From Escherichia coli (lineage in GTDB: Bacteria; Pseudomonadota; Gammaproteobacteria; Enterobacterales; Enterobacteriaceae), in assembly GCF_003334335.1 (NCBI RefSeq), contig NZ_QOWQ01000007.1: a stretch of 64,000 bases of DNA; one strand, 5' to 3'. Shown here piece after piece: positions 57,409 through 61,716 of the stretch (within the stretch, counting starts at the first letter, position 1; every line of letters starts with the position of its first letter). The notes under the pieces are model-generated. The model had not been told where the DNA came from. It saw only the letters and a list, made by a program, of their open reading frames with translations, and did not search any database. Made by a program: the position numbers and the translations under genes.

Positions 57409-57484
57409 TGGCTCCTCTGACTGGACTCGAACCAGTGACATACGGATTAACAGTCCGCCGTTCTACCGACTGAACTACAGAGGA
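57409..57484 (-). tRNA. asnV: tRNA-Asn (GUU)
   Basis: Reverse complement reads TCCTCTGTAGTTCAGTCGGTAGAACGGCGGACTGTTAATCCGTATGTCACTGGTTCGAGTCCAGTCAGAGGAGCCA, 76 nt, identical to the two other copies in the window. Confidence 0.97.
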
Positions 57485-57502
57485 ATCGTGTGAACGGGGC
57501 GC

Positions 57503-57531
57503 ATATTAATGGCAGTGCATGGTGATGTCAA
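57503..57531 (-). promoter_or_regulatory. asnV promoter (sigma70: TTGACA-17-TAATAT with GC-rich discriminator)
   Basis: Minus strand: TTGACA at 57531-57526, TAATAT at 57508-57503, GC-rich discriminator before the tRNA 5' end. Confidence 0.6.
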
Positions 57532-57738
57532 AGGGTGAAATGCATTTTTTTGTTTGTTTGCTGGCTATTTCAACAAAGCGGTGAGATTTCAATCTTATTG
57601 GTAATGAACCATCGTGGTGCATACCCTCCTTTTATGGGGCAGGGGAACGCGACTTCTGATAAAAAGAACCTATGACGAATCTATCATAATCTCTTATTTG
57701 ACAGTTGGTTAGCTTGTACATCAACGCCAAAGCAAAAC

Positions 57739-57754
57739 TGGCAAGCATCTTGCA
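57739..57754 (+). promoter_or_regulatory. sigma54 (-24/-12) promoter of nac
   Basis: cTGGCAagcatcTTGCAg fits the TGGCAC-N5-TTGCW consensus ~55 nt upstream of the nac ATG. Confidence 0.7.
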
Positions 57755-57809
57755 GTCTGGTTGTAAGTAATGGCGGCACTTGGGCCGATTCTTAAAAACC
57801 GGAGGCAAC

Positions 57810-58727
57810 ATGAACTTCAGACGCCTGAAATACTTCGTAAAAATTGTAGATATTGGTAGCCTGACGCAGGCTGCTGAAGTATTGCATATCGCACAACCAG
57901 CGCTCAGCCAGCAGGTTGCCACACTGGAAGGTGAGTTAAATCAACAGCTTTTGATTCGCACAAAACGGGGCGTTACGCCAACAGACGCCGGAAAAATTCT
58001 CTATACCCATGCGCGGGCCATTTTACGTCAGTGTGAGCAGGCCCAACTGGCGGTGCATAACGTTGGTCAGGCATTATCGGGGCAAGTCTCGATTGGCTTT
58101 GCGCCAGGAACCGCTGCGTCATCCATCACCATGCCCTTATTACAGGCGGTTCGAGCTGAATTCCCGGAGATCGTTATCTATCTTCATGAAAATAGCGGTG
58201 CAGTGCTTAACGAAAAACTGATAAATCACCAACTCGATATGGCGGTGATTTATGAGCATTCCCCTGTGGCTGGTGTATCCAGTCAGGCTTTGCTGAAAGA
58301 AGATCTTTTCCTGGTAGGAACTCAAGATTGTCCGGGGCAAAGCGTTGATGTTAATGCTATTGCGCAAATGAACCTCTTTCTCCCCAGTGATTACAGTGCT
58401 GTTAGGCTTCGTGTTGATGAGGCTTTTTCCCTACGGCGGCTCACGGCAAAAGTCATTGGTGAAATTGAGTCTATTGCCACGCTTACCGCAGCGATTGCCA
58501 GCGGCATGGGCGTTGCAGTATTACCCGAATCGGCCGCGCGTTCGTTATGTGGCGCAGTAAATGGTTGGATGTCACGCATTACCACTCCTTCCATGAGTCT
58601 CTCTTTGTCATTAAATTTACCCGCCAGAGCGAACTTATCACCACAGGCACAGGCAGTGAAAGAGTTGTTAATGTCAGTGATTAGTTCTCCAGTGATGGAA
58701 AAAAGGCAGTGGCAATTGGTGAGCTAA
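57810..58727 (+). CDS. nac: Nitrogen assimilation control protein (LysR family)
   Basis: MNFRRLKYFVKIVDIGSLTQAAEVLHIAQPALSQQVATLE...; 305 aa from the ATG at 57810 with a GGAGG RBS. Confidence 0.93.
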   Translation: MNFRRLKYFVKIVDIGSLTQAAEVLHIAQPALSQQVATLEGELNQQLLIRTKRGVTPTDAGKILYTHARAILRQCEQAQLAVHNVGQALSGQVSIGFAPGTAASSITMPLLQAVRAEFPEIVIYLHENSGAVLNEKLINHQLDMAVIYEHSPVAGVSSQALLKEDLFLVGTQDCPGQSVDVNAIAQMNLFLPSDYSAVRLRVDEAFSLRRLTAKVIGEIESIATLTAAIASGMGVAVLPESAARSLCGAVNGWMSRITTPSMSLSLSLNLPARANLSPQAQAVKELLMSVISSPVMEKRQWQLVS

Positions 58728-58828
58728 GCGTTATATCGGGATGGAATAAGATGCGGGTTTTTATTATTTGTTATGCCGGGCATTAGACTTTAACAATAAC
58801 GGGAAATCTGAACTGCCCGGAGTTTACC

Positions 58829-59809: not shown

Positions 59810-59816
59810 AGAAATT

Positions 59817-59892
59817 TGGCTCCTCTGACTGGACTCGAACCAGTGACATACGGATTAACAGTCCGCCGTTCTACCGACTGAACTACAGAGGA
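59817..59892 (-). tRNA. asnU: tRNA-Asn (GUU)
   Basis: 76-nt sequence identical to asnV, minus strand. Confidence 0.97.
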
Positions 59893-60052
59893 ATCGCTGT
59901 TGAGGCACATCTTAACGGCGAAAAATCTTTTGTCAAACCCGATTTTTAAATTCCCCAACTGTTTGCCGTTTCTATCAACAGTTTGTTGCATTTGCAGACA
60001 ATTTGTTGGCGAAAATCTTTGCAGCTTTGCTGATTCTCCCTCATTATTTGAA

Positions 60053-61540
60053 ATGTGGTTTCACTTTCTGCAATTAAGGTCGGCTTTGAATATCTCCTCT
60101 GCTTTACGCCAGGTTGTTCACGGCACTCGCTGGCACGCTAAACGCAAGAGCTACAAAGTGTTGTTCTGGCGCGAGATAACCCCGCTTGCTGTTCCTATCT
60201 TCATGGAGAATGCCTGTGTCCTGTTGATGGGGGTTCTGAGCACTTTTCTGGTCAGCTGGCTGGGAAAAGATGCGATGGCCGGCGTGGGATTGGCGGACAG
60301 CTTCAATATGGTCATTATGGCTTTTTTTGCTGCTATCGATCTTGGTACTACTGTCGTTGTGGCATTTAGTCTCGGTAAGCGGGATCGACGACGAGCGAGG
60401 GTGGCGACGCGGCAGTCATTGGTGATCATGACGTTGTTTGCCGTACTGTTGGCAACGCTTATTCATCATTTTGGCGAACAAATTATTGATTTCGTCGCGG
60501 GTGATGCCACGACAGAAGTTAAAGCACTGGCGTTGACTTATCTGGAGCTGACGGTACTCAGTTATCCAGCAGCTGCCATCACTCTTATTGGTAGCGGGGC
60601 ACTTCGTGGTGCAGGGAATACGAAAATACCGCTATTGATTAACGGTAGCCTGAATATTCTTAATATTATTATTAGCGGCATATTGATTTACGGCCTTTTC
60701 TCCTGGCCGGGACTGGGATTTGTCGGGGCTGGGTTGGGTTTAACCATTTCTCGTTATATTGGCGCAGTTGCAATTTTGTGGGTGCTGGCGATTGGTTTTA
60801 ATCCTGCGCTAAGGATTTCGTTAAAGAGCTATTTTAAACCGCTGAATTTTAGCATTATCTGGGAAGTCATGGGGATTGGTATTCCAGCGAGTGTCGAATC
60901 AGTGTTATTTACCAGTGGTCGGTTATTAACCCAAATGTTCGTTGCCGGGATGGGGACCAGTGTTATTGCCGGAAATTTTATCGCGTTTTCAATTGCGGCT
61001 CTTATCAACTTACCCGGAAGTGCGCTCGGCTCTGCTTCTACGATCATTACAGGCCGAAGGTTGGGGGTAGGGCAGATAGCGCAAGCAGAGATTCAGTTGC
61101 GGCATGTGTTCTGGCTGTCCACTCTTGGATTAACGGCCATCGCCTGGCTAACGGCTCCCTTTGCCGGGCTTATGGCATCGTTTTACACCCAGGATCCACA
61201 GGTTAAACATGTCGTTGTGATTCTGATTTGGCTAAATGCTTTATTTATGCCTATTTGGTCCGCCTCATGGGTGCTACCCGCTGGATTTAAAGGTGCTCGT
61301 GATGCCCGTTACGCCATGTGGGTTTCGATGTTGAGCATGTGGGGTTGCCGGGTTGTCGTCGGTTATGTGCTGGGCATCATGCTTGGCTGGGGTGTGGTTG
61401 GTGTCTGGATGGGAATGTTTGCCGACTGGGCTGTGCGGGCCGTGCTGTTTTACTGGCGAATGGTTACTGGACGTTGGCTATGGAAATACCCTCGACCCGA
61501 GCCGCAAAAGTGTGAAAAAAAGCCAGTTGTGTCGGAATAA
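60053..61540 (+). CDS. yeeO: MATE-family efflux transporter
   Basis: 12-TM MATE-like protein; ATG at 60053 gives 495 aa; the longer ORF from a TTG at 59900 would run through the predicted asnU promoter and is considered less likely. Confidence 0.85.
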   Translation: MWFHFLQLRSALNISSALRQVVHGTRWHAKRKSYKVLFWREITPLAVPIFMENACVLLMGVLSTFLVSWLGKDAMAGVGLADSFNMVIMAFFAAIDLGTTVVVAFSLGKRDRRRARVATRQSLVIMTLFAVLLATLIHHFGEQIIDFVAGDATTEVKALALTYLELTVLSYPAAAITLIGSGALRGAGNTKIPLLINGSLNILNIIISGILIYGLFSWPGLGFVGAGLGLTISRYIGAVAILWVLAIGFNPALRISLKSYFKPLNFSIIWEVMGIGIPASVESVLFTSGRLLTQMFVAGMGTSVIAGNFIAFSIAALINLPGSALGSASTIITGRRLGVGQIAQAEIQLRHVFWLSTLGLTAIAWLTAPFAGLMASFYTQDPQVKHVVVILIWLNALFMPIWSASWVLPAGFKGARDARYAMWVSMLSMWGCRVVVGYVLGIMLGWGVVGVWMGMFADWAVRAVLFYWRMVTGRWLWKYPRPEPQKCEKKPVVSE

Positions 61541-61593
61541 ACGACAAAATGCAGATTATTTCAGCAAACGATTTCAAATTTAAAAAACAGGCT

Positions 61594-61622
61594 TTGACAT
61601 TGTGGGTGGGCATCGCTAATAT
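61594..61622 (+). promoter_or_regulatory. asnW promoter (TTGACA-17-TAATAT, GC-rich discriminator)
   Basis: TTGACA at 61594-61599 and TAATAT at 61617-61622, ~18 nt upstream of the tRNA 5' end. Confidence 0.65.
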
Positions 61623-61640
61623 TCGCCTCGTTCTCACGAT

Positions 61641-61716
61641 TCCTCTGTAGTTCAGTCGGTAGAACGGCGGACTGTTAATCCGTATGTCACTGGTTCGAGT
61701 CCAGTCAGAGGAGCCA
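61641..61716 (+). tRNA. asnW: tRNA-Asn (GUU)
   Basis: TCCTCTGTAGTTCAGTCGGTAGAACGGCGGACTGTTAATCCGTATGTCACTGGTTCGAGTCCAGTCAGAGGAGCCA read directly on the plus strand. Confidence 0.97.

Follow-up and report, generated by a model that had tools for sequence, protein, structure and literature searches.

Identical tRNA-Asn genes as endpoints of natural deletions and inversions around nac-cbl and yeeO in Escherichia coli

Rearrangements of the kinds considered here also arise between repeated copies of rrn, tuf and IS. Inversions between rrn operons in E. coli, exchange between tufA and tufB in Salmonella and IS deletions all follow the same logic. Direct repeats delete what lies between them, inverted repeats flip it, and the junctions fall within the repeats. 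For RecA-dependent recombination in E. coli, homologies above roughly 25-30 bp suffice. A different kind of system uses tRNA genes as integration sites. The P4-type integrase islands that target asn tRNA genes include the Yersinia HPI, the E. coli pks island and Klebsiella ICEKp, and identical asn copies offer them several equivalent attB sites. Both kinds of system bear on the asn cluster of E. coli. In pks-positive phylogroup B2 strains a 4,309-bp inversion spanning asnV-asnU-asnW has been reported (Auvray et al. 2021, PMC8209727; Wami et al. 2021, PMC8461471). In their passages on this region, both papers propose that the inversion accompanied or followed acquisition of pks.

The locus studied here, asnV-nac-cbl-asnU-yeeO-asnW, is a classical cluster known from K-12. 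The window, meaning the whole 64-kb stretch of DNA that was analysed, matches E. coli strain 1506 (NZ_CP059288.1) at 100% identity, and the RefSeq annotation of that record was used. ARAGORN finds exactly three tRNA genes in it, all tRNA-Asn with the anticodon GTT at position 34. They are asnV (57409..57484, minus strand, 76 nt with the CCA end encoded), asnU (59817..59892, minus) and asnW (61641..61716, plus). Each scores 72.6 bits against the Rfam covariance model RF00005, where the gathering score is 29, and an Rfam scan of 47-64 kb returned nothing beyond these three. The direct repeats asnV and asnU bracket two LysR-type regulators on the plus strand, the nitrogen assimilation control gene nac (57810..58727) and the CysB-like cbl (58829..59779). 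The inverted repeats asnU and asnW bracket yeeO (60053..61540, plus), a MATE-family efflux transporter, and asnV is likewise inverted relative to asnW. This is the mixed orientation given in the first-pass annotation. The K-12 cluster asnT/asnW/asnU/asnV (about 44 min, mtfA to ldtA) has the same genes, orientation and tRNA sequence, and the same order, ldtA-asn-nac-cbl-asn-yeeO-asn-yeeN. An exact copy of the 76-mer stands at each of the four K-12 loci and at each of the three in the window. The three genes are the clustered copies among the four identical tRNA-Asn genes of E. coli; asnT, the fourth of the K-12 set, is not part of the window. Identity to K-12 is about 96% in the intergenic DNA surrounding the cluster and 98.8% over the cluster region as a whole.

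The three copies match at 76/76 positions, so no differences between them had been overlooked when they were first called perfect repeats. Exact identity continues for just 4-6 nt on each side of the gene, which makes the perfect homology 76 nt, or 80-86 nt with the flanking extensions. This exceeds the minimal processing segment of about 25-30 bp. The repeats are far shorter than those of the rrn, tuf and IS systems, 76 nt against hundreds to thousands, and the segments they move are just 1.7-4.3 kb. The 17-mer at the tRNA 3' end occurs 3 times in the window against 0.13 expected by chance, and allowing up to three mismatches gives no copy outside the three tRNA genes. A consensus scan predicts a promoter-like site for each gene: TTGACA-17-TAATAT for asnV (57503..57531, minus) and asnW (61594..61622, plus), and TTGACA-16-TAAGAT for asnU (59909..59936, minus). 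The asnV and asnW promoters had been called near-identical. Their hexamers and spacing do agree, and the 18-nt discriminators match at 15/18 positions when read directly, but between the 17-nt spacers only 2/17 positions agree, so the description was too strong.

The asnV gene had also been described as occupied by a PTS island, and this we could not support. The segment in question is 9.46 kb long (47895..57354), runs from the end of ldtA to the asnV terminator and carries two PTS sugar operons. K-12 lacks it, and it is present in 133 of 5,426 genomes. Its composition is atypical, with a GC content of 0.43 at 48-56 kb, where most other 8-kb intervals lie at 0.49-0.54. Variable presence and unusual composition are what one expects of a tRNA-targeted island, but the defining features of the asn-targeting P4-type islands are missing. 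By blastn against K-12 the left edge lies inside the last codons of ldtA. The right edge (57354/57355) lies 54 nt beyond asnV and past its putative terminator, a hairpin with a T run (57375..57402, minus) that is common to genomes without the segment, since K-12 homology resumes at 57355. The insertion point does not lie in the tRNA's 3' portion. No tRNA-derived direct repeat was found at the far boundary; at up to three mismatches the 17-mer core is confined to the three tRNA genes, and no partial copies were found. No integrase is annotated in the window, and tblastn with four asn-island integrases gave a best E of 0.56. The PTS segment is a strain-variable insert beside asnV that sits outside the repeat system, and it is not a demonstrated tRNA-targeted island.

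No intact island of the P4 type is present in the window, but there is a trace of one next to asnW. Positions 61718..61944 (plus) hold the decayed left end of a P4-type integrase island, of which the leader and the start of the int gene remain. By blastn it matches the asnT-linked integrase island of D97-1 at 74% over 203 nt (E 5e-27) and 82% over 45 nt. K-12 carries the same relic (255/258 identical). Other strains have integrases at the asnV, asnW and asnT positions. The suggestion that all three genes of the window can serve as integration sites is therefore sound, and pks is reported at asnW, asnU or asnV in the part of PMC8209727 that treats this region.

Rearrangements between the asn genes were sought by predicting each recombinant junction, building it in silico and searching for full-length matches in 5,426 complete E. 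coli genomes. With four asn genes, six pairwise events are possible, and four of them were seen. The asnU x asnW inversion, which flips only yeeO, is present in 32 genomes (0.6%). The asnV x asnU deletion, which removes nac and cbl, gave 35 junction matches, and the asnV x asnW inversion of the whole block gave 266 (4.9%). The asnW x asnT inversion was found in a single genome. For the two larger deletions, asnU x asnT and asnV x asnT, no full-length junction match was found in any of the 5,426, which doubles as a negative control for the method. The deletion between asnV and asnU and the inversion between asnU and asnW had both been predicted from the repeats, and both kinds of rearrangement are found with endpoints in the tRNA genes. 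The asnV x asnW pair had been overlooked, yet it is the commonest and was already published. It must be noted that 246 genomes lack the canonical cbl-asnU-yeeO adjacency and about 180 of these are unaccounted for by the rearrangements described here. A query for a cbl-asn-nac tandem duplication was covered in two pieces by 5,357 genomes, which is the search joining both halves in normal genomes.

The nac-cbl deletion is precise. In 2016C-3878 the asnV terminator, the tRNA and the asnU promoter form a single hybrid tRNA-Asn gene, and nac and cbl are absent from the deletion loci L004, L018 and L019. One of the 35 matches, SL112, was set aside because it retains both tRNA genes and a fragment of cbl and is a different, non-tRNA deletion. 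This leaves about 34 genomes (0.6%). The deletions lie on three flank haplotypes with 100%, 99.2% and 97.8% identity to the K-12 flanks, which suggests at least three events, counting from a few loci and local haplotypes rather than from a whole-genome phylogeny. On one haplotype all 30 of 30 genomes share the deletion, which is one event, and 4 of them appear in the literature as ST457 strains. When ST457 was searched for in combination with nac and cbl, no relevant paper stood among the top matches.

The yeeO inversion involves a segment of 1,748 bp (59893..61640) that contains the asnU promoter, yeeO and the asnW promoter. In the locus L003, the stretch 5677-7424 agrees with the segment's reverse complement at 1739/1748 positions, and beyond the two tRNA genes the flanks are parental. 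TC24 has both reciprocal junctions, and its flanks stay parental as far as the tRNA genes themselves. Among inverted loci more generally, L003, L006, L007 and L010-L014 all keep three tRNA genes and have swapped inner flanks, which is the pattern of both reciprocal junctions. In TC24 and 2016C-3878 the junctions fall exactly within the tRNA genes and the parental flanks are unaltered, the crossover point itself not being mappable to a nucleotide within identical repeats. One can imagine a single ancient inverted allele that was spread by recombination. We reject this since the inverted alleles resemble each other no more than they resemble non-inverted alleles. There are at least 4 inverted haplotypes that differ by 9-34 SNPs, and the TC24 allele is 6 SNPs from non-inverted K-12, nearer than to any other inverted allele. 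KL53 has a compound arrangement that is explained by two successive inversions. Judged by local haplotypes at a few loci, several of the pairwise asn events arose more than once.

Repeats can mislead assemblers, so one might suppose that these structures are assembly errors at the tRNA genes. The only "single tRNA-Asn" genome inspected, FHI_NMBU_03, is a case in point. Its record is broken exactly at asnW beside a partial IS and looks incompletely assembled, so its state is probably an assembly problem and we do not count it as a large tRNA-to-tRNA deletion. As a general explanation we find this scarcely credible. A repeat of 76 nt is shorter than ordinary sequencing reads. The same arrangements recur across laboratories, hosts and countries. 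Besides the 30 genomes of one haplotype with the deletion, there are two yeeO-inversion groups of 7 and about 20 genomes, and the relevant sections of PMC8209727 and PMC8461471 report the asnV x asnW inversion independently.

A more serious alternative is site-specific recombination. The P4-type integrases of the pks island, the HPI and their relatives would recombine the att cores of tRNA-Asn genes, and inversion or deletion would be a by-product of island integration or excision. The 3' core on which such integrases act is identical in all three asn genes, integrase genes adjoin asn tRNA genes in many strains, and the window has the relic of an integrase island at asnW. A P4-type integrase adjoins the ldtA-side tRNA in 4/4 of the asnV x asnW-inverted loci inspected, and the published accounts of this region link that inversion to pks (PMC8209727, PMC8461471). 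The window itself is non-inverted and without pks, although the endpoints in the B2 strains are the outer two of the same three tRNA genes. Given the four loci, an integrase may have contributed to the asnV x asnW inversion specifically, which is found among other strains in Nissle 1917 and NU14.

For the remaining events an integrase does not fit well. In the five yeeO-inversion loci and the two nac-cbl deletion loci examined, no asn gene of the cluster has one beside it. TC24 has one at asnV, but it is absent from 30 of the 31 yeeO-inversion genomes listed. The window has all three repeats and no integrase anywhere. One could argue that integrases coded elsewhere act in trans, for example from the HPI at asnT. 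Tyrosine integrases normally require an attP-type partner with arm sites, though, and here the partners would be two attB sites. Taken as the general cause, we consider integrase action unlikely.

It could also be argued that the rearrangements are a selected switch, where the orientation of yeeO or of nac-cbl-yeeO, or the loss of nac-cbl, alters expression or fitness and is kept for that reason. The deletion in every genome of the ST457-containing haplotype and the fixation of the block inversion in pks-positive B2 lineages could be read this way, and Auvray et al. suggest, where they discuss the inversion, that it stabilises the pks island (PMC8209727). Hitch-hiking explains fixation in a clonal lineage equally well, and all of the variants are rare. 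The junction sequences predict no change in expression, since the inversions leave the genes with their own promoters. Neither in the window nor in the five inverted loci does a recombinase lie between the tRNA genes or next to them, so a dedicated recombinase of the invertase or shufflon type is lacking. We regard a selected switch as very improbable.

We argue that the best explanation, and in our judgement a highly probable one, is general homologous recombination between the 76-nt asn repeats, with nearly neutral inversions whose persistence is set by selection and drift. Each asn gene would have its own strong promoter and terminator. Since the copies are perfect repeats spaced by no more than 2.3 and 1.7 kb, the general recombination machinery, presumably of the RecA type, would now and then recombine them. 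For the direct pair asnV/asnU a crossover would lose nac, cbl and one tRNA copy, while a crossover in an inverted pair (asnU/asnW, asnV/asnW or asnW/asnT) would flip the segment between. An inversion leaves every gene its own promoter and therefore should be nearly neutral. Selection and drift would then set what persists, so that inversions and the small nac-cbl deletion could survive and even be fixed in lineages.

The locus is textbook E. coli, and therefore little changes. Both the locus and this kind of rearrangement were already known, and what is new is a modest set of facts about particular instances. The passages on this region in PMC8209727 and PMC8461471 describe neither the yeeO-only inversion nor the compound arrangement of KL53 nor the nac-cbl deletion. 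A stronger reading would make the asn cluster a recombinational hotspot with biologically consequential outcomes. The loss of nac-cbl as in ST457 would be adaptive, or the inversions would be catalysed by integrase islands or selected, for example to lock the pks island in place. The genomes demonstrate recurrence and fixation in lineages; the stronger reading of them we consider unlikely.

All 30 genomes of one haplotype are without Nac and Cbl, which regulate nitrogen and sulfonate utilisation respectively, and have lost one copy of tRNA-Asn. From the deletion one predicts that such strains cannot grow with taurine or alkanesulfonates as sulfur source and that they respond differently to nitrogen limitation. 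The label "at asnV" or "at asnW" given to an island changes with the orientation of the block, a point for annotators and comparative genomicists to bear in mind. The value of the analysis is that it confirms short, identical tRNA genes as real substrates of natural genome rearrangement.

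Three tRNA genes are found by ARAGORN across the whole window, and all are tRNA-Asn(GTT). They are asnV (57409-57484, minus strand), asnU (59817-59892, minus strand) and asnW (61641-61716, plus strand), each scoring 72.6 bits against the Rfam tRNA model. They share the same 76-nt sequence without a difference, as the first-pass annotation had said, and beyond the genes the match is lost after 4-6 nt. E. coli strain 1506 (NZ_CP059288.1) is a 100% match to the window, and its RefSeq annotation places nac and cbl between asnV and asnU, and yeeO between asnU and asnW. Gene order is the same in K-12 (ldtA-asn-nac-cbl-asn-yeeO-asn-yeeN...yeeJ-asn-mtfA), so the three genes can be identified as asnV, asnU and asnW. 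The names follow K-12 usage and PMC8209727. The fourth tRNA-Asn copy, asnT, lies outside the window. It is well known that E. coli has four identical asn genes.

A consensus scan gives three promoter-like sites, TTGACA-17-TAATAT for both asnV and asnW and TTGACA-16-TAAGAT for asnU. The asnV and asnW promoters had been called near-identical, which is true of their architecture only, because the spacers match at just 2 of 17 positions; the discriminators are alike at 15 of 18 (direct sequence reading). The asnT promoter of K-12 (33839-33890 of K-12 locus L002) has the TTGACA-17-TAATAT layout too. Upstream of the gene, asnT and asnV (window 57485-57531) are almost identical for about 24 nt, and the effective asnV/asnT repeat is therefore about 100 nt. 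GC skew on the plus strand is positive in 7 of the 8 8-kb bins of the whole window, so this is probably the leading strand. If it is, asnV, asnU and also asnT would be read head-on, against the direction of replication, and asnW, nac, cbl and yeeO co-directionally with it. A head-on orientation is unusual for strongly expressed tRNA genes.

If these repeats recombine, the products should exist in sequenced genomes. Each junction query was built from the tRNA with some 600 nt of a different parental flank on either side. A normal genome can match only some 55% of a query of this kind at any single site, against 100% for a recombinant; genomes were counted when at least 80% of the query was covered at one site. 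The first-pass annotation predicted that asnV x asnU recombination would delete nac-cbl and that asnU x asnW recombination would invert yeeO, and both products are found among the 5,426 complete E. coli genomes. The deletion junction has 35 matches, about 34 of them true, and the full yeeO inversion junction is present in 32 genomes. The asnV x asnW crossover, which turns the whole nac-cbl-asnU-yeeO block around, is seen in 266 genomes. The 13-kb asnW x asnT inversion occurs in one, ET5, where gene order confirms it. The larger-deletion junctions asnU x asnT and asnV x asnT were each found in none of the 5,426 genomes, the latter despite its longer effective repeat. Since neither was matched, the junction method gives no false positives. 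Of the 5,426 genomes, 5,180 keep cbl, asnU and yeeO in the canonical adjacency, and about 180 of the remainder fall outside the structures assigned here. One can imagine that the variant structures are assembly errors. This is unlikely, as sequencing reads are longer than the 76-nt repeat and many independent assemblies show the same arrangements.

The loci themselves have the expected maps. TC24 reads asn(-)-nac-cbl-asn(-)-yeeO(-)-asn(+)-yeeN. Compared with window 59893-61640 in reverse complement, its inverted segment agrees at 1739 of 1748 positions, and the parental flanks are kept outside both tRNA genes. The deletion strains 2016C-3878, AH20K059 and MEI3O-23 read ldtA-asn(-)-yeeO-asn(+) with nac and cbl absent, and at the base level the 2016C-3878 junction runs from asnV terminator to tRNA to asnU promoter. 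SFAD3 has the block inversion (pks-int-asn(-)-yeeO(-)-asn(+)-cbl(-)-nac(-)-asn(+)-yeeN). KL53 reads yeeN-asn-nac-cbl-asn-yeeO(inverted)-asn-integrase island, a compound order that two successive tRNA-to-tRNA inversions, one of the block and one of yeeO, explain. ET5 is the only genome with its arrangement; yeeN-amn-shiA-yeeJ is flipped and yeeN abuts asnT-mtfA.

Two candidates were rejected. The University of Florida strain SL112 has lost nac and most of cbl, and the cbl remainder is present. It keeps both flanking tRNA genes, so this is a different deletion that did not use the tRNA repeats. Its yeeN is broken by an ISVsa5-family element, and the same IS interrupts yeeN in KL53. FHI_NMBU_03 has a "complete" record with only one tRNA-Asn match. 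The sequence stops shortly after yeeN and resumes in a partial IS3-family element and colanic-acid genes. Probably the assembly was left unclosed, or was misjoined, at asnW, and there is no real deletion.

Independence of events was read from the local haplotypes of a few loci. Six inverted yeeO loci were extracted and compared with non-inverted ones. There are at least four inverted haplotypes (TC24, the PigCaeca_1 group, the Santai/EH10 group and the LD27/YZ22 group), 9-34 SNPs apart in 1.75 kb. The TC24 allele is 6 SNPs from non-inverted K-12 and farther from every other inverted allele. For the most part the groups are also distinct in the nac-cbl segment and in the yeeN-side flank, but in the latter just 2 SNPs separate TC24 from PigCaeca_1. 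It is unlikely that one inverted allele spread by transfer. We argue that recurrent inversion is the economical reading, because the inverted alleles differ by group and the nearest to TC24 is a non-inverted one.

Three flank haplotypes carry the nac-cbl deletion, and their identities to the K-12 flanks are 100%, 99.2% and 97.8%. The main group has 28 genomes that do not differ over cobU-asnW and 2 at 99.7% identity, and the closest undeleted genome is only 99.1% identical. The precise asnV x asnU deletion has removed nac, cbl and one tRNA-Asn gene from all 30 of these complete genomes. They come from humans, livestock (cattle, pigs), pets and wastewater in several countries. All four typed members are ST457 according to published papers (EC17GD31, MRY15-117, MRY15-131 and CREC-544). 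On the haplotype evidence the same deletion in AH20K059 and MEI3O-23, which are unrelated strains, is of independent origin. The block inversion is mostly found in a B2 pks-positive group (the 95.9% identity class, including Nissle 1917 and NU14), and in a few other haplotypes (KL53, HH45, JE86-ST05, HH97 and STIN_95).

The simplest account of these rearrangements is general homologous recombination between the 76-nt perfect repeats, a length well above the minimal homology E. coli needs. It is favoured because the junctions lie exactly in the repeats, the inversions show both reciprocal junctions and the events recur across unrelated backgrounds. It is also favoured because no recombinase gene was found near the three tRNA genes in five yeeO-inversion loci or in two deletion loci (AH20K059 and MEI3O-23). 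The main rival is catalysis by the P4-type integrases of asn-targeting islands. In all 4 block-inverted loci inspected, an integrase of this type adjoins the tRNA towards ldtA, and PMC8209727 and PMC8461471 link this inversion to pks acquisition. An integrase may contribute to the block inversion, but the other rearrangements do not need one. The integrase that TC24 has at asnV is absent from 30 of the 31 yeeO-inversion genomes listed.

HPI and pks-type islands use the asn genes as alternative attachment sites, and the first-pass annotation considered asnV occupied by a PTS island. Relative to K-12 there is 9.46 kb of extra DNA at 47895-57354, which substitutes for 34 nt of K-12 sequence and is present at this site in 133 of the 5,426 genomes. 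It carries two PTS sugar operons, SorC-type and DeoR regulators, an RpiB-type isomerase, rpe (epimerase), an SDR dehydrogenase and hxlB, and its GC is low (0.43). The left edge falls within the final codons of ldtA and gives LdtA a different C-terminus. The right edge is 54 nt beyond asnV, past the terminator. Neither RefSeq annotation nor an integrase search of the window gives an integrase or other mobility gene in the segment, and a search of the window gives no tRNA-derived repeat at its far end. Judged by its sequence, it fails three defining features of a tRNA-integrated island and is a variable segment adjoining asnV.

The situation at asnW differs. Its 3' flank (61718-61944) is non-coding and kept in K-12. 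It is homologous to the asnT island of strain D97-1 (74-82% identity, E 5e-27), and the match takes in the leader and some 150 nt from the start of int at the left end of this P4-type integrase island. Because of that homology the flank looks like the decayed scar of an ancient P4-type integrase island at asnW.

Elsewhere, window 1-39900 is mostly prophage running off the left end (RecT, CI/Cro/CII-like regulators, nin-region, lysis, terminase, baseplate, tail and GH28-type tail spike). GtrA/GtrB-like O-antigen modification genes and an S24 peptidase gene follow, next to dacD. Between tmaR and cobU, 43786-44420 holds an EutP/PduV-family pseudogene fragment and a small hypothetical ORF, probably the remainder of the pdu/cbi region. 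At the ST457-type locus of 2016C-3878, cobU is still preceded by pduF, pocR and a cobalamin riboswitch.

Repeated genes have long been known to recombine and so rearrange genomes. The 4,309-bp asnV-asnW block inversion of pks-positive B2 strains is already described in PMC8209727 and PMC8461471. The literature searched gave no description of the recurrent yeeO-only inversion, the compound KL53 arrangement or the precise nac-cbl deletion shared by the ST457-type haplotype, and this silence is weak evidence. These are fresh instances of a known phenomenon and not a new kind.

Deletions reaching asnT would also take yeeN, amn, shiA and yeeJ, and either selection or a lower rate may account for their absence. 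The inversions leave each promoter with its own gene, yeeO and the asnW promoter travelling together, and change only the promoter-terminator pairing of identical tRNA bodies. Because each promoter stays with its gene they should be close to neutral. The nac-cbl deletion costs the cell Nac, Cbl and one of four tRNA-Asn copies, and it is evidently tolerated.
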